64,000 nucleotides of DNA from Eledone cirrhosa. Lineage: Eukaryota. Position 1 is the first letter of the stretch; each line of letters starts with the position of its first letter. Of this stretch, positions 48,773-64,000 are shown piece after piece. A program made the translations under genes and the position numbers. Under the pieces are notes generated by a model, which did no database searches, was not told the origin of the DNA, and was given only the letters and a program-made list of their open reading frames with translations. The stretch lies in assembly GCA_964016885.1 (NCBI GenBank), contig OZ024740.1:11346001-11410000 (forward strand), written 5' to 3'.

Positions 48773-49016
48773 ACATGTCTTGTGTTCACCTTCTATTCGG
48801 TTTGTTTACTTCGTTTTTTCCTCTTTCCCTTTTTTCTTTCTTCCTCTCTCTTCACTATCAATTCTTTCCTCCGTGGCCTTTTGATGGATAAAAGGCCTCG
48901 GGCGCGCTGCCGATCGATGCCCTGTTTTTAAGCGCCGAAACATATCTATGATCCGCAGTAATCAGCTGATGAAGGGCTACTTTGCTTCTCTTGTTTATGT
49001 CCCTATTACCATCTTA

Positions 49017-49050
<34 letters not shown>

Positions 49051-49317
49051 GGAAAAAATGAAACGAAATTTCATTTCTCACTCTTAGTACGGCTGTTACT
49101 TAAATATAAGTATGTATACGTACATACATATATGTATACAGACGTACAGTAGTATGTATATATATATACATACATGCACACATATATATATATATGTACG
49201 TATGGATTCACCGAACATTTATTATAATGCTCGGTGTGTTTGTAAACAAACATCCCGAATTAAGCCGTACAGTGTCAAGCAACCATCGTTGCTCATTTGT
49301 TCAACACTGACAAAGGA

Positions 49318-49360
49318 ACGCTGTACTAGTTTCAAGCTTATTAGCTATCGTCAGCAACGT
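49318..49360 (-). ncRNA. Minimal type I hammerhead ribozyme (family A)
   Basis: Minus strand reads ACGUUG CUGACGA UAGCU AAUA AGCUU GAAA CUAG UA^ CAGCGU: 6-bp stem I, canonical core, 4-bp stem II closed by U.U, palindromic stem III ACUAGU, GUA triplet. Confidence 0.88.
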
Positions 49361-49872
49361 ATACCTTCCTGCCAGATGGTTGAACGTCTGAAAGTATATA
49401 CCTTCCTTATGCATATTAACGGCTGAGCAGCCAAATTTGTATATCCAGTGAGTTAATCGGCCGGGTTACCGAAAACGATAAACGGCAAAAATGAAATGAA
49501 ATTTCATTTCTCACTCTTAGTACGGCAGTTACTTAAATATAAGTATGTATACGTACATACATATATGTATACAGACGTACAGTAGTATGTATATATACAT
49601 ATATGCACACATATATATATGTACGTATGGATTCACCGAACATTTATTATAATGCTCGGTGTGTTTGTAAACAAACATCCCGAATTAAGCCGTACAGTGT
49701 TTAGCAACCATCGTTGCTCATTTGTTCAACACTGACATTCATTTTTTCCGTTTATCGTTTTCGGTACCGCGGCCGATTAACTCACTCGATATGCAAATTA
49801 GGCTGCTCCGCCGTTAATATGCATAAGGAAGGTATATATTTTCAGACGTTCAACCATCTGGCAGGAAGGTAT

Positions 49873-49915
49873 ACGTTGCTGACGATAGCTAATAAGCTTT
49901 AAACTAGTACAGGGT
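49873..49915 (+). ncRNA. Hammerhead family A, inactivated copy
   Basis: acgttg ctgacga tagctaataagctt TAAA ctag ta caggg: G12 is mutated to U. Confidence 0.75.
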
Positions 49916-50118
49916 TCCTTTGTCAGTGTTGAACAAATGAGCAACGATGGTTGCTAGACACTGTACGGCTTAATTCGGGATGTTTGTTTACAAACACACC
50001 GAGCATTATAATAAATGTTCGGTGAATCCATACGAACATATATATATGTGTGCATGTATGTGTATATATATACATACTACTGTACGTCTGTATACATATA
50101 TGTATGTATGTATACATA

Positions 50119-50192
<74 letters not shown>

Positions 50193-50425
50193 TTAGAAAC
50201 ACACAGATACATGCGGACACACACATATATACATGAATGCATCCGCACCCAACTGTGAGTTAAGGGTGCCAACTTCACCGATGTTGCTCAATGAATGACT
50301 GGGACAGACCAATTCAGTTGAACCAGACTGAACCAGTATCAGAGTTAAAAATACATTATGAAGAGAGAAGAAACATTTAGATATAATTAGTAATAAAATG
50401 TATCATACCTAAACTGTTCCTAAAT

Positions 50426-50515
50426 TCCTCGACTACGTAGTTTCGTGGCATAAACAAAAACAATATATCATAAAGACATAGAGTCCTTGCGAGGTCTGCC
50501 GACTTATCAAGAGGA
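50426..50515 (-). ncRNA. Hammerhead family B (U3-A8 variant), inverted copy
   Basis: Reverse complement of 51348-51437 with core and stems intact. Confidence 0.8.
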
Positions 50516-51347
50516 TACCTCATTTTACTAGTCTCAAGAACGCGTCTACACGACGTGAGAAAGAATCCCAAAAGGCGGAGGGGGAGATAGTCACGCGATA
50601 TAACGGTCGAGAAACAGAGCTAAGCCTCTTATAACCCCGAAGAAAATACCACGGAGGCGGAGGGGGTATTTATATCGAGGCCGTAGAAGAGGTGGCGAAG
50701 AAGGCGAGAAGTATGAGTAATGGAAGCTATCCAGCTGTCCCCACACTTCAAAGATTGCTCGACCAGAGGGAGTTATTAACAATATATTTGGAAACACACA
50801 GATACATGCGGACACACACATATATACATGAATGCATCCGCACCCAAGGAGCAGTTTAGGTATGATACATTTTATTACTAATTATATCTAAATGTTTCTT
50901 CTCTCTTCATAATGTATTTTTAACTCTGATACTGGTTCAGTCTGGTTCAACTGAATTGGTCTGTCCCAGTCATTCATTGAGCAACATCGGTGAAGTTGGC
51001 ACCCTTAACTCACAGTTGGGTGCGGATGCATTCATGTATATATGTGTGTGTCCGCATGTATCTGTGTGTTTCTAAATATATTGTTAATAACTCCCTCTGG
51101 TCGAGCAATCTTTGAAGTGTGGGGACAGCTGGATAGCTTCCATTACTCATACTTCTCGCCTTCTTCGCCACCTCTTCTACGGCCTCGATATAAATACCCC
51201 CTCCGCCTCCGTGGTATTTTCTTCGGGGTTATAAGAGGCTTAGCTCTGTTTCTCGACCGTTATATCGCGTGACTATCTCCCCCTCCCCCTTTTGGGATTC
51301 TTTCTCACGTCGTGTAGACGCGTTCTTGAGACTAGTAAAATGAGGTA

Positions 51348-51437
51348 TCCTCTTGATAAGTCGGCAGACCTCGCAAGGACTCTATGTCTTTATGATATAT
51401 TGTTTTTGTTTATGCCACGAAACTACGTAGTCGAGGA
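51348..51437 (+). ncRNA. Type I hammerhead ribozyme family B, U3-A8 core variant, long stem II
   Basis: UCCUC UUGAUAA GUcGGCA..(~45 nt)..UGCCAC GAAA CUACGUAG UC^ GAGGA: 5-bp stem I, palindromic stem III ACUACGUAGU, GUC triplet. Confidence 0.82.
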
Positions 51438-51506
51438 ATTTAGGAGCAGTTTAGGTATGATACATTTTATTACTAATTATATCTAAATGTTTCTTCTCTC
51501 TTCATA

Positions 51507-51540
<34 letters not shown>

Positions 51541-51544
<4 letters not shown>

Positions 51545-53047
51545 ATACTTTGGGAGGGTCATGTTGCCAATAAGAAACACACGCACCAGTTGCTTTCACT
51601 TCAATTTATTATAATAAATTTATAAATTTAGGAATTTATAAATTTCCTGTTGGTTGGTTGGTTCCACAACCAGATGGTTGTTTATATATTGTCAAAGTTC
51701 TTTCGTCACACATTCTGTGACCTCTTCAGTGACTGGGGGTTCTTTTCTTTGTTTTTGTGCCTCTCCTTTGTTCTGTCCTACGCCATCTTGTTTTTGTGTG
51801 TGTGTGTTGTTTGCTTAGTTTGCGCATGTGTTACATCCGGGTGTCTGTGTGTGTTTATATTCGTTTATTTATTTGTTTATTTACTTGTTACTGGTTGGTT
51901 GTTTGTTCTATGTGCGTGTGTGTTTTCATTTTGTCCTTAATTGTAAGTTGTGATGTTGCTGTTCCACTCATGTTTTCTATTTAATTTTGGTTGTAATTCA
52001 TTTATGTTTATTGCCTCTGTGATTTGTCTAAACATTGCGTCTTTTCTGTGTGTAGATTCTATTTTTATTTCTATGTTCTCTAATTTACCCTTATGTTCTA
52101 TTTTAGCATGTTGGTAGAGTACAGATGATTCTTTACTATCTTGAAGGTCTCGCCAGTGTTCATTTATCCGTTCCCCTATACTACGAGCTGTCTCAACTAT
52201 GTACACTATATTTTTATCTCTACATTCTCCTTCAGTACATCTTATGCTATATACTACATTTCTAGTTTTACAGTTAATATGGGGGCTTAATTTACAGATT
52301 ATACATTTCTTATCTATACAGGGAGGTCTTTGAAAAGGGTGTCTTGCTAATAAGTGTTTTTATGGAGGTACCTGGTCTTTCTACTATCTTAATATTGAGT
52401 TTATGTTTATCTAGGGTCCTTCTAAATTTGTAAGCTAATTCACCTCTAGGGGTTGTATCGATGAACATTACACTCTGGTATTTATTGCTATCATACCATG
52501 AGTTTATTCTATTAGCCTTATTCCTAGTTCTTTCTATTCTATTCCAAAATGTGTTCCTATACAAGGAGCAGGTCCCATTTGTGTCATTATTTACCATTTT
52601 TTTCCCATTTGGTTCTGGCTCCTCTATACACTCTGATTTTATCTCTCTGATTGTAACCAGAGAACTGCATACGGTGGATGAAGTGTTGTATGTGTCTCTC
52701 TAGTTCTTCAGGGTTGCACATGCGGGACACGTTTCTCATCACCCGTACCAAATCCGCAATCAGTATGTTCATTTTGGTATGGTCCGAAACAGCTGAGTTT
52801 CGGTGGATCAGATAATTGGAAGTCATGGGTTTGGCATAATGGGAATGGATAATTTGTTTTTGGTTATTAATGGTATCTAACCAGAGCTCTGTGTCTAGTA
52901 CAGGTTATCGATGGTTGGGGTGTTTGCTTGGGTAGTCTATAGTAACTCTCATACTCTGGTGGATGGAGTTAACTATTTGCTGGATGCTTTCCATGAAGTG
53001 TTGTATGTGTCTCTCTAGTTCTTCAGGGTTGCACATGCGGGACACGT
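51541..53047 (-). mobile_element. Penelope-like retroelement, 5'-truncated inverted copy (RT C-terminal part, GIY-YIG, 3' UTR), frameshifted
   Basis: Minus-strand ORF pieces 52587-52826, 52310-52597 and 51937-52206 match the + copy protein. The 3' end abuts (TA)n at 51540. Confidence 0.93.
51691..51733 (-). ncRNA. Hammerhead of the PLE 3' UTR, inverted copy
   Basis: Reverse complement of 54803-54845. Confidence 0.72.
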
Positions 53048-53080
53048 AGATAATTATTACTATATGTATAGTAATATATA

Positions 53081-54613
53081 CTTAAACTTACCTATAGTAA
53101 TAATTATCTAGACACATATGACCTTAGCAACCTGTGCCCTACAAGACCAGCAAGAGGCAGACCACCTACCATTACCTCAATGGCCAAGGAAACCCACACA
53201 GATAGATGGAACGGGTAGACCAGAGCCATACGGACCCCCGAAAAGCACGATGAACTAAAGAAAATGATTGCACATGCGGTGGGGGCCAGCATAAAATTAA
53301 CGCTTAAGGAACATATGTTCAAATTTAATGGAAAAACATATGGCCAAGAGGAGGGAGCAGCCATTGGTGTTAGCATTGCAGGTGACATAGCTAACTTATT
53401 CATGGTATGGTGGGACAGTAGACTTAAACTTAAACTTAAAGAACAATTAGAAGACCCCTTAACCCTGATAATGTACTCCCGCTACGTTGATGATATAAAC
53501 ATCTTAGTTAAAACACCCCCACTAGAGAACAGTCAAGAATTAGAGAAAAACACAATGGAAAGCATCCAGCAAATAGCTAACTCCATCCACCAGAGTATTA
53601 GAGTTACTATAGACTACCCAAGCAAACACCCCAACCATCGATTACCTGTACTAGACACAGAGCTCTGGTTAGATACCATTAATAACCAAAAACAAATCCT
53701 CCATTCCCATTATGCCAAACCCATGACTTCCAAATATCTGATCCACCAAAACTCAGCTGTTTCGGACCATACCAAAATGAACATACTGATTGCGGATTTG
53801 GTACGGGTGATGAGAAACGTATCCCGCATGTGCAACCCTGAAGAACTAGAGAGACACATACAACACTTCATCCACCGTATGCAGTTCTCTGGTTACAATC
53901 AGAGAGATAAAATCAGAGTGTATAGAGGAGCCAGAACCAAATGGGAAAAAATGGTAAATAATGACACAAATGGGACCTACCCCTTGTATAGGAACACATT
54001 TTGGAATAGAATATAAAGAACTAGGAATAAGGCTAATAGAATAAACTCATGGTATGATAGCAATAAATACCAGAGTGTAATGTTCATCGATACAACCCCT
54101 AGAGGTGAATTAGCTTACAAATTTAGAAGGACCCTAGATAAACATAAACTCAATATTAAGATAGTAGAAAGACCAGGTACCTCCATAAAAACACTTATTA
54201 GCAAGACATACCCTTTTCAAAGACCTCCCTGTATAGATAAGAAATGTATAATCTGTAAATTAAGCCCCCATATTAACTGTAAAACTAGAAATGTAGTATA
54301 TAGCATAAGATGTACTGAAGGAGAATGTAGAGATAAAAATATAGTGTACATAGGTGAGACAGCTCGTAGTATAGGGGAACGGATAAATGAACACTGGCGA
54401 GACCTTCAAGATAGTAAAGAATCATCTGTACTCTACCAACATGCTAAAATAGAACATAAGGGTAAATTAGAGAACATAGAAATAAAAATAGAATCTACAC
54501 ACAGAAAAGACGCAATGTTTAGACAAATCACAGAGGCAATAAACATAAATGAATTACAACCAAAATTAAATAGAAAACATGAGTGGAACAGCAACATCAC
54601 AACTTACAATTAA
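53081..54613 (+). pseudogene. PLE reverse transcriptase plus GIY-YIG endonuclease, 5'-truncated, with in-frame stops at 53216 (TAG) and 54014 (TAA)
   Basis: Motifs FKFNGKTYGQEEGAAIG..ANLFM, YSRYVDD, LPVLD, HYAKP, the Cys-rich linker CIDKKCIICK..NCKT, and NVVYSIRC..C..YIGETAR..ERINEH..H..H..RQITEA. The inverted copy has GAA (Glu) where this copy has TAA. Confidence 0.93.
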
Positions 54614-54802
54614 GGACAAAATGAAAACACACACGCACGTAGAACAAACAACCAACCAGTAACATGTAAATAAACGAATATAAACACAAACAGACACCTG
54701 AATGTAACACATGCGCAAACTAAGCACACAACACACACACAAAAACAAGATGGCGTAGGACAGAACAAAGGAGAGGCACAAAAAACAAAGAAAAGAACCC
54801 CA

Positions 54803-54845
54803 GTCACTGAAGAGGTCACAGAATGTGTGACGAAAGAACTTTGAC
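54803..54845 (+). ncRNA. Minimal type I hammerhead in the PLE 3' UTR
   Basis: GUCA CUGAAGA G GUCACA GAAUG UGUGAC GAAA GAAC UU^ UGAC: 4-bp stem I, one extra G after A9, 6-bp stem II, very short non-palindromic stem III. Confidence 0.75.
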
Positions 54846-55051
54846 AATATATAAACAACCATCTGGTTGTGGAACCAACCAACCAACAGGAAATTTATAA
54901 ATTCCTAAATTTATGAATTTATTATAATAAATTGAAGTGAAAGCAACTGGTGCGTGTGTTTATTATTGGCAACATGACCCTCCCAAAGTATAACAATATC
55001 GGTTTCAACACACGTTTTCAGATAAAGAATCTTGCTAAACAAATTCAGAAA

Positions 55052-55094
<43 letters not shown>

Positions 55095-55348
55095 TGTAAT
55101 AAACAACATAAGGCAATTATTTCATTTACCAGTAAGCTCTGTAACATACATAGAGCACTCTTTTTTCCTGGACCTTTCCGACGGAATTACTTCATATATA
55201 TATATATATATTAGAAAGTGAGGTTTTTTTTACAAATTGAAAAATAACCGAGGTGTCCTACACGAGTGAAAGTATAAAGAAAAAGAGATGAAATCGAAAA
55301 TGCAACTGGAGTCTTATTTTTTTTTTAAATATATATATTTATTTGGTT

Positions 55349-55386
55349 CCTTTACCGGTTTTGCAGTTCTTCTGCTTTTCAAAAGG
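55349..55386 (-). ncRNA. Hammerhead family C, inactivated copy (GAAA to AAAA at a CpG)
   Basis: Reverse complement of 55478-55515 with tttcgc changed to ttttgc. Confidence 0.75.
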
Positions 55387-55477
55387 TGAGTTGACATGGA
55401 GAGTCTGTGGTTTTTCTCACATCTGGTGAGAAAAATGTGAGATGTGAGAAAAACCACAGACCCTCCATCTCAACTCA

Positions 55478-55515
55478 CCTTTTGAAAAGCAGAAGAACTG
55501 CGAAACCGGTAAAGG
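55478..55515 (+). ncRNA. 38-nt minimal type I hammerhead family C, U3-A8 variant
   Basis: CCUU UUGAAAA GCAG AAGAA CUGC GAAA CCGG UA^ AAGG: all three stems pair perfectly; palindromic stem III ACCGGU. Confidence 0.87.
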
Positions 55516-55583
55516 AACCAAATAAATATATATATTTTTTAAAAAAAATAAGACTCCAGACTCCAGTTGCATTTTCGATTTCA

Positions 55584-55649
<66 letters not shown>

Positions 55650-55771
55650 TTAGTTAAGCAAAATAGGACCACGAATTTCACAAGGAAGACATTAAAAGAT
55701 TGTCAAAATATTTTAGTTTGATGTAAGGAATGTAGAGAATAATAATAATAATATTAATAATAATAATGTCT

Positions 55772-55890
55772 GTTTACAATTGTTTCGCTACTCCATATAA
55801 TATTTCTGGATCAGATGACTATATATCATTATTTATCTGGTTCAGTTGAAAATAATTAACATATTTAAAAACAGAGCGGCTCATCGGAAC
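55772..55890 (-). ncRNA. Hammerhead-like motif family D (core CCGAUGA, ~95-nt stem II region)
   Basis: Minus strand GUU CCGAUGA GCcGCUCUG...UGGAGUaGC GAAA CAAUUG UA^ AAC; palindromic stem III ACAAUUGU; stem I only 3 bp. Confidence 0.62.
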
Positions 55891-56077
55891 TTCAAAGGAA
55901 TAAATTAAAATAAGGAGATACCCATAGGCAGATCTCACACAATGCAGCCTCGACAGATGAATACTGCTTGATTATGGCTGACAACTGATACAACCAGGTC
56001 ACCATAGTGAAATACCAATATATGGAACATTACATTATGTAACATTCTCTCCTTATTTTAATTTATATTCCTTTGAA

Positions 56078-56196
56078 GTTCCGATGAGCCGCTCTGTTTT
56101 TAAATATGTTAATTATTTTCAACTGAACCAGATCAATAATGATATATAGTCACCTGATCCAGAAATATTATATGGATTAGCGAAACAATTGTAAAT
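56078..56196 (+). ncRNA. Hammerhead-like motif family D, second arm
   Basis: gtt ccgatga gccgctctg...tggattagc gaaa caattg ta aat. Confidence 0.58.
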
Positions 56197-56499
56197 GGAC
56201 ATTATTATTATTAATATTATTATTATTATTCTCTACATTTCTTACATCAAACTAAAATATGTTGACAATCTTTTAATAATGTCTTCCTTGTGAAATTCGT
56301 GGTCTTGTTTTGCTTAACTAATGAATATTTCCAGCTCTGCGCGCCTAACTTCTGCATGAACCCAGCCACCTAGCTGCTTTCTACTGCATATTGCACATTG
56401 AGCACATGCCTTTACGCTTTGGCTTCTAACTAATTCACGAATCTCTCCTCTCTTATCTCCTTCTCTCCCTTTAAGATTGGTTACTCTTGAATTGTGTAT

Positions 56500-56755
56500 A
56501 TATATACAGTGTATTTTGCAATACACTGTATGCTTAATTAAAAGCATTTTGAAGACCTTACGCTATTGTTTTAGAGTAGTGACAGTCTCACTTACTTTAA
56601 ATTTTCAGCAAAAAGGGGGAGATAAAGCTTTATCTCCCCCTGTTTGCTGAAAATTTAAAGTAAGTGAGACTGTCACTACTCTAAAACAATAGCGTAAGGT
56701 CTTCAAAATGCTTTTAATTAAGTGTACAGTGTATTGCAAAATACACTATATATAC
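56500..56755. repeat. Spacer-less ~256-bp palindrome centred on AAAG|CTTT (56627/56628), element E
   Basis: Arms are reverse complements with few mismatches; each arm contains a further hairpin TACAGTGTATT-TTGC-AATACACTGTA. No convincing HHR seen. Confidence 0.9.
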
Positions 56756-56973
56756 ATTCCTATATATATCGCTATTTCAGAGCACCAATTCTAATATATA
56801 TATACACACATATATATATATATAATTATAAGTTTGAAGAACAGTCAGACAAAATATATCCAATTTTTCTTCTCCTTAGTAAAAATTAACTAGACAAATA
56901 ATCAATTAAACGGAGCTAAATCTAAAATGCAAGTTTGAAGAAAAATTGTATATCAACTTTACCAAAGTCCTTC

Positions 56974-57078
56974 TAGTCCTGACTATCGATAGTTTCACTC
57001 GTACTTTGTGGATATGTCCAATCCTGGTTATTATCCATGAGGTTTCGAGCTTCTAAAGAGACTCCCTCAAGAGGACTA
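56974..57078 (-). ncRNA. Degenerate hammerhead candidate (family F) in a ~350-bp fragment between (TA)n runs
   Basis: Minus strand GAAA CUAUCGAUAG UC^ AGGACUA with palindromic stem III and a 7-bp partner UAGUCCU upstream. The CUGANGA box is degenerate (CUUGAGG or UUUAGAA). Confidence 0.45.
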
Positions 57079-57212
57079 ACATTTCTACAGTGATCGCCGC
57101 CAGAAATAAATTCAAAATGGGTAAGAACTATCACGTGGTTAGCGGTCAGAGAAGGGTGGCAGGTATGTTTCCTGATATATATATATATACCCATTTTCTA
57201 CTAGCATTTCAA

Positions 57213-57274
57213 GGGGTCCGTCGAGCCGCAGATTACAGAGTCGAGTAAGATCGATACAGATTGAACCTTGAGTT
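57213..57274 (+). mobile_element. Fragment of a diverged relative of element H (5' half of its hammerhead)
   Basis: ggtccgtcgagccgcagattacagagtcgagtaagatcgatacagattgaaccttgag aligns with 58156-58213. Confidence 0.7.
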
Positions 57275-57293
57275 ATATATATATATATATATG

Positions 57294-57324
<31 letters not shown>

Positions 57325-57468
57325 ATGGAAGGAATTTGTAGTATACTTGAAGCATTGTATATGGTATAAAGAATTAAAAGTTTGAAAGCCACAACAATGC
57401 AGGTTTGGACGGGGATAATTAAATGGTAAGAAACTGGGGTTGTTTTTTTACCTTAATTTATTCATATG

Positions 57469-57506
57469 TCCTGATATTTCGAGATTAATATCTCTTCTTC
57501 CGAGGA
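57469..57506 (-). ncRNA. 38-nt minimal type I hammerhead family G (core CGGAAGA, extra A after A9) within a ~280-bp fragment (57327-57605)
   Basis: Minus strand UCCU CGGAAGA A GAGAU AUUA AUCUC GAAA UA UC^ AGGA; palindromic stem III AUAU. Confidence 0.72.
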
Positions 57507-57811
57507 AAATAAAGGAACTATTCCAGTGTCCGATGTGGCTTGTTATACACATATATAGTTGTAGGAACAAACGAAAGAGTAATCAAGATAATGTGGAAGT
57601 TGAGTATATATATATATCTAATATATAAATAATTAATAACAATATACCGTATTTGCCGGCCTATTGGACGCTCCCTCTTTTTTAAATTATATTTTACGTT
57701 ATATTTTGACGTTTATAGGCATTTTTATGGACCACATCAAATATTGGCAGTTTTTCACTCTCCGTGGGTTCTCTAGGAACATAACCCCCGCCAATACCGG
57801 GGGACTACTAT

Positions 57812-57886
<75 letters not shown>

Positions 57887-58007
57887 GTTGACGGGATTAG
57901 CATAAGGTTTCCCTGCTAGTACTGGGTTGCATCTCATATATATATATATATAATAAAATAAAATAAAAGAAGGACGAGTGGTTACTCCTTCATTACGTTT
58001 ATTAGTT

Positions 58008-58092
58008 GGTGACGCGCGTTTCGCCACCGATCAGCTCAAGGTTCGATCTGTATCGATCTTGCCCGACTCTGTAATCAATGGCTCTTCGAACC
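58008..58092 (-). ncRNA. Hammerhead family H (core YCGANGA, long stem II)
   Basis: Minus strand GGU UCGAAGA GCCAUUGAUU...GAUCGGUGGC GAAA CGCGCG UC^ ACC: 10-bp stem II base, palindromic stem III ACGCGCGU. Confidence 0.7.
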
Positions 58093-58155
58093 TCTTTGGT
58101 GGTAATGATAGAATTCTATCATTACCACCATGAAATCTATCATTACCACCAAAGA

Positions 58156-58240
58156 AGTCCGACGAGCCATTGATTACAAAGTCGGGCTAGATTGATACAG
58201 ATCGAACCTTGAGCTGATTGGTGGTGAAACGCGCATCACC
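58156..58240 (+). ncRNA. Hammerhead family H, second arm (core CCGACGA, CpG-decayed stems)
   Basis: agt ccgacga gccattgatt...gattggtggt gaaa cgcgca tc acc. Confidence 0.65.
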
Positions 58241-58394
58241 AACTAATAAACGTAATGACGGAGTAACCACTCGTCCTTCTTTTATTTTATTTTATTTTAT
58301 TATATATATATATGAGATGCAACCCAGTACTAGCAGGGAAACCTTATGCTAATCCCGTCAACTTCACACACATATATATATATATATATATATT

Positions 58395-59273
58395 TCGTTT
58401 CTGAATTTGTTTAGCAAGATTCTTTATCTGAAAACGTGTGTTGAAACCGATATTGTTATACTTTGGGAGGGTTATGTTGCCAATAAGAAACAAACGCACC
58501 AGTTGCTTTCATTCCAATTTATTATAAATTAAATTATAAATAAAAAAATTTTTTAAAAATGTATAATACAACCCCTAGAGGTGAACTAGCTTACAAATTT
58601 AGAAGGGCCCTAGATAAACTTAAACTAAATATTGAGATAGTGGAAAGACCAGGTACCTCCATAAAAACACTTATTAGTAATACATACCCTTTTCAAAGAC
58701 CTCCCTGTATAGATAAGAATATAATGTACATAGGTGAGACAGCTCGTATAGGAGAACGATTAAATGAACACTGGCGAAAGCTTCAAGATAGAAAAGACTC
58801 ATCAGTACTCCACCAACATGCTAAAATAGAACATAAGGGCAAATTAGAGAACATAGAAATAAAAATAGAATCTACACACAGAAAAGACGCAATGTTTAGA
58901 CAAATCACAGAGGCAATAAACATAAATGAACTCCAACCAAAATTAAATAGAAAACATGAATGGAATAGCAACATCACAACTTACAATTAAGGACAAAATG
59001 AAAACACACACGCACATAGAACAAACAACCAACCAGTAACATGTAAATAAACAAATAAAAACACAGAGACACCCGAATGTAACACATGCGCAAACTAAGC
59101 ACACAACACACACAAAAACAAGATGGCGTAGGACAGAACAAAGGAGTGGCACAAAACAAAGAAAAGAATCCCCGGTCACTGATGAGGTCACAGAATGTGT
59201 GACGAAAGAACCTTGACAATATATGAACAACCGTCCGGTTGTGGAACCAACCAGCCAACCGGAAATTTATAAA
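58395..59273. mobile_element. Third, more diverged PLE copy: 3' tail on - (58395-~58545) plus endonuclease and 3' UTR segment on + (58566-59273)
   Basis: ORF 58559-58990 matches 54080-54613 with a 32-codon deletion. 58395-58530 is the reverse complement of ~54915-55054. Confidence 0.92.
59175..59217 (+). ncRNA. PLE 3' UTR hammerhead, third copy (CUGAUGA core, U16.1 mutated to C)
   Basis: gtca ctgatga g gtcaca gaatg tgtgac gaaa gaac ct tgac. Confidence 0.68.
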
Positions 59274-59632
59274 AAATGTTATATATATATATATGTGTGT
59301 GAGTGTACAGATAAGTCGCTAGCAACATATACTTACAGACACACACACGCACTTTTTCCGCTTCGTATATATATGCGTATGTGTGCGCGCGCGCTTATTG
59401 TTTGTTTATGTTCCCTACTTCGCGGTTCGACAAATAGAGATCGATAAGACTTGATAAAATAACTGGTGGGTTCGATAAATATGCACACACACACACATAT
59501 TCATGAAGAGTGAGAGGTAGGGGGGACAAGCATGTTTTCAGTGTAGTACACGTATAGACACATAGTCACACACATGTACATAGACGTACACACACATATT
59601 CATTCATAAACACTGAGTTTTAGTGTTTATGA

Positions 59633-59735
59633 ATGAGTGTGTGCATGTGTATGAGTGTGTGCATGTGTATGAGTGTGTGCATGTGTATGAGTGTGTGCAT
59701 GTGTATGAGTGTGTGCATGTGTATGAGTGTGTGTG
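59633..59735. repeat. 18-bp tandem repeat (ATGAGTGTGTGCATGTGT) x ~5.5, preceded by a 14-bp-stem hairpin at 59601-59635
   Basis: Seen directly; it produces the ECVHVY repeat ORF. Confidence 0.9.
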
Positions 59736-60462
59736 TAAGAAACCGAGCCAGAGAGGGAGATTGTTTCGGTATTTATCAATGAGGATGCCTGTTTATAACC
59801 ACTCCCTCTGCCTTTTTATCTATCTATATATTCATCTATAGATATCTACCCTCTCATAGCTATGTGTACCCCTCTCTCTGTATCTATCTATTTATCCATC
59901 TATCTATGTAACTACCTATCCATCTATCTACATATCTATCTTCCTACCTATCTATATTCCCATACACACTGCGAGAGTGTCTATTTCACATATTCACACA
60001 AACATACACATTCACATACACACACCACATAACCACATACACGAACAAGTACAAACATATATGCATACGCACACGCAATCTGTCTCACATATTCATACAA
60101 ATACACACACCTACTATATTTCACACTCACACATAGATATCGATACACACTGACACAGTCATATACAGAGGTTTACTACAAACTATTATTGATTATATAT
60201 CATCAACCATGAAACAACTATCATCCCCACTGTTTATACATTTTCCGTTGTGATTTATAGTGGCGTGTGATATCAGATTATATATTTTCACTGATCTTTT
60301 TTCACTGAAAATTTATCTGCACATTTAGAGGTTACAGGTTAAATGTTAATATCTGACCGACTCTTTCTTTCTTCTTTCCCCACGCCGCCAAGTTGGGCCT
60401 TCAAAGATTGACGATGGCGACCGCCATAGCTTTCTGTTCTCAGTTTGTGTTGCTATTGCACG

Positions 60463-60880
60463 GACGCTGCATGGCTGTGTGGTTAAGAAGTTCGTTTCAT
60501 AGTCGTGAGGTTCTAGGTTTGGTTCTACAGTGTGGCAGACCTGTCAACTTTTCCCGGGGTATTTGCAATAGCCTTTGGGGTGGGTAAGAGATGTCTTTTG
60601 TGAAAATGAGTACAGCTTTCATTATGTAAAATCTCCCCATTTTGGGGCACATTTTTCATGTTTGGGTTTTTAGAGGTTGACAGGTCTGCCATCTTGGGAA
60701 AGTGTCCTCCAGCTCTACTGTACCGTACTGAATCTCCCTGAGAATGACACTAATATTCACTTATTTTCACTCTAATAAAAGATGGACTACATGTGCAATT
60801 CAAACATCCAGCTTTGTCACGCTGAATTTCCTAGAGAATTGTGTTAAGGGTACCCATATTTGTGGCATATTTAACCAAAA
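60463..60880 (+). mobile_element. Degenerate tRNA-derived SINE, interrupted by a MITE
   Basis: A-box-like tggctgtgtggttaagaag, degenerate B-box region, cttgggaaagtgtc, and later gtcacgctgaatttcctagagaattgtgttaagggtac. Resembles octopus SINEs as recalled. Confidence 0.6.
60534..60690. mobile_element. MITE-like element, 157 bp, with perfect 15-bp terminal inverted repeats GGCAGACCTGTCAAC
   Basis: TIRs at 60534-60548 and 60676-60690 split the SINE motif gtgg|catcttggg. Target-site duplication is ambiguous. Confidence 0.75.
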
Positions 60881-60919
60881 TAAGCCAGATGAATTCTTCA
60901 ACACAACTGTATTACACAG

Positions 60920-61470
60920 AAAAATGGCAACCATCAACCACATAGATATAAAGGTAAAATATGTAATATCAGTCATAGATGAAATGAAACCAAATTAGCA
61001 GCTAGCCCTGATGGTCTCCCAGCAATCCTAAAAACCTGCAAGTGAACATTAGCAAAAACAATGCATATACTCTTACAAAGATTCCTTGCAAATGGTAAAC
61101 TAAAAAAAGGCATAATATATCCTATCTATAAAAGAGGAAGCAGAGTAGGTGCTAAAAACTACTGGCCTGTCTTCCTGACCTCACATACCAGCAAAGTCAT
61201 GGAACGAATCATCAGAAGGAAACTGATAATTTTGCCCAGGTAGAAGTTGTCTTACGCAGCTCTTACAGCATTATGACTGAATACTCAAAGAGTTGCTAGA
61301 CAGTTTGAACGTAGATGTGATATATCTTGACTTGTAAAAGCCTTGAACAAGGTTGATCATGGAACGAAATTCACAAACTACATAGCTGGATCACTAGGTG
61401 AATGGCTTCATGACTTCTCGAAAGAAGTGTCAATAACAAGAGGCATGTCCCAGAGAACTGTCTAGAGGTC
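60920..61470 (+). pseudogene. Degraded CR1-like LINE reverse-transcriptase fragment
   Basis: Translated motifs A.SPDGLPA.ILK, IYPIYKRGSR..AKNYWPVFLTSHTSKVMERII, GRSCLTQLL, VDVIYLD..KALNKVDH, with stops and frameshifts. Confidence 0.85.
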
Positions 61471-61614
61471 GCTACTGTAAAGAAACAACAGCACATGTTC
61501 GGCCATTCCCCTGTATCAAGAAAATGACAAGTTTTTTCCAAGGAAGCTTTTTGATTTTTTAATTTAAAGATTTGTTGAGGAACTTTGAATGTTTTCAAGT
61601 TTTTATAGGTTTTC

Positions 61615-61726
61615 CTGTCTGAAGAGCTCAGGCTGTCACAACTGATAGTTCTCAGTGAAATATGTATAACGTCTGAAGAGCTCAGGCTATCACAATTGAT
61701 AGTTCTCAGTGAACTATGTATAACAG
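61615..61726 (+). ncRNA. Two tandem 54-bp copies of a decayed minimal hammerhead (family I)
   Basis: CUGU CUGAAGA GCUcAGG CUAUCA CAAU UGAUAG uUCUcAGU GAAA UAUGUA UA^ ACAG; units 61617-61670 and 61671-61724. Stem III AUAUGUAU is one CpG transition from the palindrome AUACGUAU. The second copy has GAAC. Confidence 0.68.
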
Positions 61727-61789
61727 AGTTTTGAATAAACCTGAATCAACTGATTATGGCCCCCGATATTTTAATATTATATATATAAA

Positions 61790-61980
61790 GGGTGGTGAAT
61801 TGGCAGTATCGGTAGAGGGTCGGGTGCCGCCATGCTTTGACATATAGAGTTACGGCCCTTGGCATTCTGAGTTCAAATCCCGCTGAGGTTAACTTTGCCT
61901 TTCACCCTTACGGGGTCGATAAAATAAAGTACCATTGATGCACTGGAATAATTGCTGGCCTGGTGCCAAAAATAAAAACA
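61790..61980 (+). mobile_element. tRNA-derived SINE (octopus OR/CORE-type as recalled)
   Basis: A box tggcagtatcgg, B box gagttcaaatccc, central aactttgcctttcacccttacggggtcgataaaataaagtacca, tail ggcctggtgccaaaa. Confidence 0.72.
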
Positions 61981-62074
61981 ATTACTATATACATACATAT
62001 ATATATACATATATATATATGCACATACATATATATATATATATACACATACATATGTATATACAGACATATAT

Positions 62075-62363
62075 CTCTATATATAAAACTAATGTTGTCT
62101 GTGTGTGTGTGTCATCATTTTTGCAAAGTCTATACAAATCCACATTTCTACTCCAATTGACTTCAAACTTGCATTTATATATTCCTTGCGGTCTAAAGAT
62201 ACTAATTGCCACTTTTATTTTTCAATTTTCTGTTGTTAAAGGGGTGTTAGGCGTCGGTTATCGATCGCCGTCGAGCCCTTATAATATCTGTCTGTATGTC
62301 TGGCTGTCTGACTAACGACATTCTGACGAACACGTCATTGCTGACGTATTATCTTCGCTACAT

Positions 62364-62365
<2 letters not shown>
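62075..62365 (+). mobile_element. Possible non-autonomous Helitron-like remnant
   Basis: Starts TCTATATATAAAA..gtctgtgtg, then ccaattgacttcaaact, resembling invertebrate Helitron 5' ends. No clear 3' CTRR. Confidence 0.3.
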
Positions 62366-62440
<75 letters not shown>

Positions 62441-62457
62441 CTTATATATACATATAT

Positions 62458-62640
62458 ATCATCATCATCATCATCATCATCGTTTAACGTCCATCTTCCA
62501 CGCTTGCATGGATTTGGACGGGAAATTTTCCCACTTGAGGCAAGATTGGTTGTCTTGCTCGTGTAGGACTGTCTGGCGGGTTTTCTACGGCTGGATGCCC
62601 TTCCTAACACCAACCACATTTACAGTGTGGGGCTGGGAAC
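62458..62640 (-). mobile_element. SINE 3' half with RTE-like tail ending in (GAT)n
   Basis: Minus strand GGTTGGTGTTAGGAAGGGCATCCAGCCGTAGAAA central motif and tail ...gaagatggacgttaaacgatgatgat; recalled from mollusc SINEs. Confidence 0.65.
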
Positions 62641-62854
62641 TTTTTACCGTGTTACCTACACGGCCACATTACAGCATGGACTGTGTGTTTTTTTGTCGTG
62701 ACACCTACACGACCTCATTTGTTTCGGACTATATATACATATACACACACATATATACACATATACATATATACATATGCAAACATATACACATATATAG
62801 ATATACACATATACACATATATAAATATACACATAAAAATATATGTATATATAT

Positions 62855-62916
<62 letters not shown>

Positions 62917-62922
<6 letters not shown>

Positions 62923-63552
62923 TGCCCCCTCGTCATCGAGTATGGCTCTTGCACGAGAAAAAAAAAATATATATATATATATTAATAACAATAATAATGA
63001 TTTCATTTATTAGCCACAAGGGCCGACATAATAATAATAACAACAATAATAATAACGATAACAACAACAACAATAATAATATACATATATATATATATAC
63101 ACACACACGCACACACATAAACATATCTATACACACACACACACGATAGCAACTAACAGCGCTGCGATCGAATGTGGCTTTTTAGCCCAGCCAATGATCT
63201 AAAATGTCTTGCACTGAGTCGGGAACCAAAACATTCACTGGGAATAGTCGACTGTGGTTGGAGTTCGTGTACTTTTGCATGTCGCTTGAGCCCTCCTGCT
63301 GATTTACATTCTCTACCACATGTTTGGCAAGCATGATGAATAGCATCTCCAACTGCAGCCTGGTAGTCAACCACTGGTCCTACTTTATGACTGCGAAGAT
63401 GACTTTCGAGTCCAGCTTTGCTTAGGCAGAGTCTCGCACAGACGCTGCATGTCAGCACCATAGGAGGACCCTCACCGTCTGGAAGCAACAGCAATGCCCT
63501 TCCTCACATCCCGCTTTACTTTCTCGTATGCGATTCGAGATGCCTCAAAAGC

Positions 63553-63553
<1 letters not shown>
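62917..63553 (-). mobile_element. RTE-clade LINE 3' end: C-terminal C2H2-like repeats (63153-63553) and probable 3' terminus (62917-62957), split by microsatellites
   Basis: [18 protein letters not shown], then [42 protein letters not shown] and a degenerate third FRSLAGLKSHIRS. The CxxCxRxCxSxxGLxSHxRxH motif is typical of RTE/BovB ORF ends. Confidence 0.72.
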
Positions 63554-63879
<326 letters not shown>

Positions 63880-64000
63880 CGAAGGAAATGTGGTAAGGAA
63901 CCAGGTGGACCATAACGCACCAAAGTACTCAATACTTGAGGTAGTAGAGTGGGTAATAGGAACCAGTAAGACCCCGACAGCTGAGCTCAAGCCGTTTCGA

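Follow-up and report, generated by a model that had tools for sequence, protein, structure and literature searches.

Nine hammerhead-bearing repeat families with a common Penelope-like insertion footprint at one TA microsatellite of Eledone cirrhosa

Penelope-like elements (PLEs) were described in 2014 as carrying minimal hammerhead ribozymes, among them a U3-A8 variant, arranged in opposite-strand pairs, and a circular template was proposed for them (PMC4209133). Non-long terminal repeat (non-LTR) retrozymes followed in 2020, with PLEs named as their likely mobilizer (PMC7229834), and evidence of kinship was added in 2026 (10.64898/2026.07.22.740005). Among cephalopods, Hydra-1_Obim from Octopus bimaculoides is a TA-targeting, hammerhead-bearing PLE (PMC8557442), the giant squid has 235 Rfam hammerhead hits (PMC6962438), and Octopus vulgaris has 31 active PLE families and about 900 short interspersed element families, with ribozymes unmentioned in the available sections of that account (PMC13282606). 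Here, we analyzed a stretch of 64,000 nt from the 3.0-Gb assembly of Eledone cirrhosa (GCA_964016885.1, contig OZ024740.1, 11,346,001 to 11,410,000; "the window"), in which repeats with hammerheads are piled up in TA microsatellite DNA between 49020 and 59295.

It is probable that nine elements with hammerheads were inserted in turn into a single TA microsatellite, in each case likely by PLE reverse transcriptase (RT)/GIY-YIG proteins. Mapping to family references gave the order, from left to right, A, B, PLE P, C, D, E, F, G, I, H, and a third P copy; these letters belong to the present analysis and may differ from those of a preliminary description of this DNA. That description had reported successive (TA)n runs separating unrelated elements, which we see as well, with nine repeat families involved and with G being no more than a fragment of H. 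The nine family references, compared with each other by word-7 BLAST, gave a single 22-nt match (E = 0.023), in keeping with the absence of common primary sequence reported earlier. Self-comparison and reference mapping revealed a feature absent from the preliminary description: nearly all units consist of two inverted arms joined head to head, each with its 3' end at the outer edge, next to TA. Identity to the family references ranged from 99% (B) down to 88% (H), so that the pile was likely built up over a long time. About half of it is ordinary PLE debris, and the rest consists of retrozyme-type monomers with a PLE footprint.

The footprint was resolved in copies elsewhere in the genome, the 11 loci that overlap the window being left out of all counts. 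Each family has two fixed 3' ends downstream of the hammerhead cut (in nt: A 223/279, B 80/245, E 144/170, F 307/414, C 80/141, I 114/151, H 57/133, P 164/218, and D 135/296), spaced 26 to 165 nt apart. TA lies directly past the 3' end in 48/50 arms of B, 47/53 of E, 45/49 of D, and 65/75 of C. Head-to-head pairs numbered 127, against just 2 tail-to-tail; both ends lay at fixed sites in 95 of them, and 90 of these 95 used one site of each kind (A 11/12, B 15/16, E 13/14, F 3/3, C 16/18, I 10/10, H 8/8, P 7/7, and D 7/7). The queries often fixed the end of one arm, but not that of its partner. Both P sites fall in the first codons of the open reading frame (ORF; locus L275), as in the PLE of Anolis. 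The two sites correspond to the one-sided tail known from PLEs (PMC8557442). The strongest sign that PLE proteins move the families without an ORF is that these, too, obey this PLE end rule, and A, B, E, and F, which show the footprint, were therefore likely copied in trans.

Such pairs would arise if a PLE protein cleaves (TA)n, which is self-complementary, on both strands and primes complementary DNA (cDNA) at both DNA ends, a likely course by analogy with the chemistry of the Anolis carolinensis PLE Poseidon (PMC11167929). Each DNA end would use its own fixed start site within the RNA, downstream of the hammerhead, and fusion of the two cDNAs through their truncated 5' ends would yield a head-to-head pair bordered by TA; each insertion would leave TA on both sides for the next. 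In vitro, Poseidon likewise cuts and extends both strands and prefers AT-rich DNA, and its two internal start sites, located inside the start of the ORF, bound the tail (PMC11167929). The comparison differs in two respects: the assay was run without ORF-less RNAs or circles, and its priming had no homology with the target (PMC11167929), whereas in our families most short sites finish in TA-like bases.

Five of the nine families are PLE ends or probably so. Judging by the frames into which they run in other copies, P, D, C, and I are identified as truncated 3' ends of different autonomous PLEs, and H is probably that of a fifth. The P protein has its best named homologue in Octopus vulgaris (69%) and an open frame of 1,042 codons at L287:2939-6064; compared with the motif description, its translation carries a CX2-5CxxC linker and a CCHH motif, features of the Neptune or Nematis clade, and no named reference element is among the 120 homologues listed for it. 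D passes into a Hydra-like RT/GIY-YIG frame, C forms the end of a third PLE in L334/L381 and L337/L382 (the subfamily in the window having a short fixed 5' end), and I passes into frameshifted GIY-YIG sequence in L227 and L232. For H, a Hydra-like endonuclease lies 1.0 and 2.6 kb upstream in two loci, and the gaps in both make the link to an ORF likely only. RT and GIY-YIG share one frame upstream of the 3' end in P, D, and C. The assignment of H as the end of the PLE in L288 was tried and rejected (0/19 loci); that PLE ends in C. The Russian-doll locus L287:739-8835 has H arms around a further hammerhead family, a relative of A, and a long P copy. The preliminary description had spoken of an RT-encoding PLE and of one TA-targeting machinery. 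In the window, the C-terminal half of the RT and the GIY-YIG domain are present, in a 5'-truncated copy with a stop separating the two frames, and the footprint common to all nine families is accompanied by at least four or five PLE families, not a single machinery.

These families resemble endonuclease-bearing (EN+) PLEs (PMC4209133, PMC8557442) in a GIY-YIG domain C-terminal to the RT, a minimal type I hammerhead near the 3' end (found in P, D, C, I, and H), and the U3-A8 variant, and equally in the extra base after A9, the palindromic stem III, and opposite-strand pairs 100 to 700 bp apart. The inverted 5'-truncated arm and the tail at one end only (PMC8557442), again seen in all five, and the (TA)n targeting are likewise common to both. 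In contrast, tails measure 26 to 165 nt here and 30 to 40 bp in the descriptions, the cores CCGANGA and CGGAAGA and stem II regions of 53 to 94 nt are absent from the published descriptions compared, and four families here have no ORF. With the Hydra clade and Hydra-1_Obim (PMC8557442), D has in common a CxCX5C linker, a CxxC before the E and a CxH after the N, the TA target, and RT motifs alike by eye; its hammerhead is unlike the one listed, which makes D another family.

The monomers of A, B, E, and F, 433, 595, 321, and 684 nt long, are arranged head to tail, the sequence past the long site returning into the hammerhead. Their longest ATG frames have 68, 76, 28, and 49 codons, respectively. 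The own-genome search gave 542 to 2,554 first-look candidates per family, figures which are not copy numbers; for these four, the best 28 or 29 loci per family plus bystanders were sampled from 725 to 1,818 candidates. Direct-repeat partners occurred in 14/28 (A), 29/29 (B), 16/29 (E), and 20/29 (F) loci, those of F being mainly an internal 140-nt repeat, with the full 685-nt period in L162. PLE-protein matches were found in 10 of 115 loci, none of them seen continuing into a monomer on the sense strand. An 8.5-kb palindrome at L286:664-9134 holds 14 B units, 99.8 to 100% identical, as 6.7 and 7.5 units in opposed arms, and B is a young family, its copies being 99% identical. Another B insertion (L290:9853-9998, L403) lies about 23 kb to the right of the copy in the window, and within the latter a TATA-like motif ahead of a C-rich stretch (51188-51205) is a possible internal promoter.

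The preliminary description's proposal of non-autonomous retrozymes thus fits four families and fails for the other five, which are or likely are truncated PLE 3' ends; its own reservation, that every family might be a PLE 3' untranslated region, applies to those five, and the 115 loci yielded no PLE link for A, B, E, and F. Like metazoan non-LTR retrozymes (PMC7229834, 10.64898/2026.07.22.740005), these four consist of non-coding monomers arranged head to tail, each with a single type I hammerhead, have G+C contents of 34 to 42%, and are highly paired as circles (predicted z = -5 to -8), and for both PLEs are the proposed mobilizer. They depart from the 2020 retrozymes, which have canonical hammerheads and about 170 to 400 nt (PMC7229834), in their PLE-type variants and in lengths of up to 684 nt: in B, E, and F, the core is of the U3-A8 variant and the palindromic stem III measures 10 to 12 nt, and in A an unpaired U follows A9. 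Minimal motifs are admitted as retrozymes in the 2026 preprint (10.64898/2026.07.22.740005). RNA circles were shown in the metazoan retrozyme papers and are a prediction for our families; the retrozyme descriptions compared are without two-armed insertions, fixed ends, a TA target, or any cephalopod.

The 5' ends bear on the template. They are not enriched at the cut site (A 2/85, B 1/51, E 4/54, and F 0/39), which lends no support to the ribozyme processing assumed in the preliminary description; the idea that 5' ends mark the cut, prompted by E, was rejected on these counts. Pile-ups of 5' ends in I (-55) and P (-258) proved to be alignment breaks against the references, and that of C, at about -71, seems genuine for the subfamily present in the window. 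Read-through of the cut site was seen in 69/85 (A), 47/51 (B), 45/54 (E), and 30/39 (F) arms, and 41, 37, 27, and 11 arms, respectively, are longer than one unit. The scattered 5' ends and the read-through point to a template that is a circle or an uncleaved multimer. Variants were examined in 34 B insertions, after 15 duplicate loci and insertions more than 6% from the majority were dropped. Among variants present in every copy of the site, 21/27 were A>G (sense), with 8 such sites against none for T>C (p = 0.0005), and single-copy variants comprised 5 A>G and 12 T>C. In L286, five variants, one of them private, occur in all 13 to 15 copies of both arms, and the four possible combinations of sites 107 and 549 are all represented. 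Seven of the eight A>G sites lie in paired positions of the predicted circle and none of the eight is preceded by a G on its 5' side, a context in line with the preferences of ADAR. The simplest reading is that one edited monomer was copied repeatedly from both ends. For A, B, E, and F, we lean slightly toward a monomeric circle, made by cleavage and ligation of a dimer, as the template, which would account for the read-through and for the arms longer than one unit.

Several observations weigh against this account. TA follows fewer ends in A (53/84), F (20/39), I (25/46), H (40/64), and P (68/122) than in B, E, D, and C, partly through alignment breaks. An end away from the fixed sites was found in 32 of the 127 pairs, the H pair in the window uses the short site twice, and no common sequence or fold was found at the two priming sites. 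The 28 or 29 best loci read per family are a sample of the kind that missed the ORF link of C, so that A, B, E, or F may have a parent with an ORF among its rarer copies. Only a weak A>G excess was seen in A (10 versus 3 sites, p = 0.04) and F (7 versus 2, p = 0.04), no such excess was seen in E, C, D, or P, and unit-wide variants could be inherited from a homogeneous source array. Cleavage by the U3-A8, U4C, and U4G cores is predicted from sequence.

A tentative alternative keeps the same PLE machinery and has A, B, E, and F copied from long uncleaved array transcripts or by template jumps, with no circle and with the hammerhead as a passenger. The missing 5' pile-up at the cut site agrees with it, as do the 7-unit arrays, which are possible sources of such transcripts. 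The Anolis PLE takes unprocessed RNA and needs no hammerhead in vitro (PMC11167929), minimal hammerheads cleave poorly in vitro (PMC4209133), and eight of nine Xenopus dimers failed to cleave (10.64898/2026.07.22.740005). Yet the core of this supposed passenger departs from the majority less than its flanks do in seven of nine families (B is level and E reversed), and editing of a multimer should yield unit-specific A>G changes, whereas in B the single-copy variants have no excess of A>G (5, against 12 T>C) and it is the whole-insertion variants that are A>G.

We consider it improbable that all nine families are truncated pseudo-LTRs of autonomous PLEs with unsampled ORF-bearing copies, so that nothing is non-autonomous. 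This is true or likely for five of the nine, C seemed ORF-less in its top 29 loci until its ORF link was found by chance, and partial tandems of PLEs are known (PMC8557442); against it, A, B, E, and F close on themselves with frames of at most 76 codons, tandem partners were seen in just 1, 0, 0, and 0 loci of the PLE-end families C, D, H, and I, and the few loci with PLE-protein matches showed none joined to a sense-strand monomer. Very improbable, in our view, are DNA-level foldbacks (repair, gene conversion, or assembly artefact) or DNA transposons at TA that resemble miniature inverted-repeat transposable elements. Arms up to 100% identical, as in L286, would suit foldbacks; TA is also a Tc1/mariner target, and the pile contains a piece at 57644-57812 whose ends we take to resemble Tc1/mariner or Tigger terminal repeats (3 matches in 2 of the retrieved loci). 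Against either version, the arms end at different fixed sites in 90/95 pairs, the centers vary among copies, the flanks are unmirrored, and the A>G bias is strand specific.

The preliminary description placed a hammerhead in nearly all elements. For the families this was borne out: in all nine, most copies carry the motif, and each majority sequence folds into a minimal type I hammerhead whose 3-8 pair is of the Watson-Crick kind (C-G in five families, U-A in four) and whose stem III is palindromic, in P with AA as the two middle bases. The majority cores are CUGACGA (A), CUGAAGA (P), UUGAUAA (B, E, and F), UUGAAAA (C), CCGAUGA (D), CCGACGA (H), and CGGAAGA (I), varying mainly at positions 4, 7, and 17. 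Covariation, to which the description had looked, was seen as compensatory changes in stem I of A (U-G 61, G-U 9, and A-U 7; n = 83) and stem III of I (U-A 41 and A-U 6; n = 48), with one compensatory pair in a 14-row check of A. In the window, the picture is less complete. Rfam, both at the gathering threshold and at E <= 10, found no hammerhead in the pile, just hairpin look-alikes, and a strict CUGANGA scan recovered only A and P. A relaxed descriptor, loosened with the present families in view after an earlier relaxed version had missed A, B, D, and H, found 8 intact motifs from six families (A, B twice, P twice, C, D, and I) and none in each of 40 shuffles. The copies of F, H, and the third P are decayed, and that of E begins at the cut site and is without a hammerhead.

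The same descriptor counted 44 motifs in 52 random 10-kb pieces, taken at round coordinates on large contigs, or about 0.85 per 10 kb, and none in shuffles of the first 40 pieces. Extrapolated to the genome, this gives about 250,000 motifs (bootstrap 160,000 to 360,000), a load far higher than the 235 Rfam hits of the giant squid (PMC6962438), and Rfam misses every motif in the pile. With 8 motifs of 6 types, the pile exceeds the maximum of 6 motifs and 4 types in any random piece; this is the fair test, since the count of families (nine in the window, 0 to 2 in random pieces) is circular, the families having been defined here. The pile is the dense tail of a genome-wide pattern and no different kind of thing. 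Many more hammerhead families appear in the random pieces L291-L330, the commonest with an AU-rich stem I of 8 bp.

Around 250 focal copies, other hammerheads had a density of 1.98 per 10 kb within 500 bp, 1.72 at 500 to 1,000 bp, and 0.73 beyond, against 0.85 in the random pieces; 9 duplicates were dropped, some matches may be unmasked relatives, and TA-rich regions confound the comparison. The local enrichment is real but modest, about twofold. The earlier suggestion that each insertion leaves a TA target for the next therefore has in its favor hammerheads about twice as dense within 1 kb, and against it a family-level neighbor test that was flat (50/259 versus 18/120, p = 0.39). As for the novelty that it suggested for cephalopods, Hydra-1_Obim was already catalogued as a TA-targeting hammerhead PLE (PMC8557442). 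Our literature search found no paper on cephalopod hammerhead clusters or retrozymes, on a two-site two-arm footprint, or on editing marks in retrozyme copies, and repeat libraries, supplements, and subscription papers may hold these families.

Table 1. Features of the pile, in window coordinates (+N, nt downstream of the hammerhead cut)
Feature	Position	Strand	Remarks
(TA)14 run	49020..49047		Left edge of pile; about 13 further runs of at least 12 nt between units, up to 59294
A left arm	49045..49737	-	1.6 units of 433-nt ORF-less monomer; 3' end at long site, +279 from cut
A hammerhead	49318..49360	-	Core CUGACGA, intact
A right arm	49738..50128	+	0.9 unit; 3' end at short site, +223; GAAA mutated
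B left arm	50186..50847	-	1.1 units of 595-nt ORF-less monomer; end +245; intact U3-A8 hammerhead 50426-50515
B right arm	50847..51512	+	1.1 units; end +80; intact hammerhead 51348-51437
PLE P inverted arm	51537..52994	-	End +164; intact hammerhead 51691-51733
PLE P forward arm	53079..55053	+	5'-truncated; RT C-terminal half 53219-54013; hammerhead 54803-54845; tail to +218
PLE P CX4CxxC linker and GIY-YIG	54017-54613	+	After stop 54014-54016, which separates RT and GIY-YIG frames
C two-armed pair	55212..55594		- arm to +141, + arm to +75; assigned to 3' end of third PLE family
C + arm hammerhead	55478-55515	+	Intact, U3-A8
D two-armed pair	55643..56495		- arm to +135, + arm to +296; assigned to 3' end of Hydra-like PLE
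D - arm hammerhead	55772-55890	-	Intact, core CCGAUGA; 94 nt separating core halves
E two-armed pair	56495..56795		321-nt ORF-less monomer; arms run from +1 to +135 (-) and from +1 to +170 (+)
F single arm	56825..57172	-	ORF-less monomer of 684 nt with decayed hammerhead core
G, fragment of family H	57190..57274	+	First half of hammerhead only
I single arm	57327..57548	-	End +152; assigned to 3' end of fourth PLE; intact hammerhead 57469-57506, core CGGAAGA
H two-armed pair	57951..58294		Both arms end near +57; both hammerheads decayed; likely 3' end of fifth (Hydra-like) PLE
Third P copy, - arm	58396-58551	-	To +218
Third P copy, + arm	58565-59279	+	Internal deletion; hammerhead at 59179 decayed

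The remainder of the window is of a different nature. A 24/45-bp satellite fills positions 1-47323 and was met again 38 kb upstream (L408:1994-10000), with no TA runs in the three intervening 10-kb pieces; its total length is probably about 85 kb, and the pile begins at the first long (TA)n past it. A tenth repeat family (48780-49019, + strand; 1,453 candidates) ends in this first TA run, its two 3' ends being separated by about 40 nt. The majority sequence of the family fits the type-SGC hammerhead as defined in PMC10085705, not circularly permuted, with stems III of 5 bp, I of 6 bp, and II of 5 bp with a bulge; 18 rows showed no covariation, and the copy in the window is without U16.1. Within the pile, 55091-55193 is a piece of a further repeat with an internal inversion and TA at its end (29 matches among the retrieved loci). 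The H pair is enclosed by a 52-nt inverted pair (57884-57935 and 58314-58371) whose sequence matches a different hammerhead element at its 3' end, in L296, through either nesting or the copying of a chimeric RNA. To the right of the pile, 59296-64000 gave one relaxed-descriptor match, and a 54-bp tandem duplication at 61617-61724 has CUGAAGA and a downstream GAAA.

The mover of animal retrozymes and the circular template have been proposed since 2014 and 2020 and were backed only by co-occurrence and sequence kinship. Here, four ORF-less families adjoin five PLE ends with one footprint, which supplies exact priming coordinates for a direct assay; the young family B, the TA target, and the open PLE frame are material for it. 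The pile itself is of lesser interest, as the tail of a common process. In the widest reading, which we hold as evenly balanced between right and wrong, a dimeric PLE protein would open (TA)n on both strands and two RTs would circle one ADAR-edited RNA from two fixed starts, writing mirror-image arrays, a single end rule would govern circles without an ORF and autonomous PLEs alike, and the roughly 250,000 hammerheads would be the record of a circular-RNA route. If the circle reading is true, the long-proposed retrotransposition of circular RNA would be on record in this genome, with its start sites mapped for a test in vitro.

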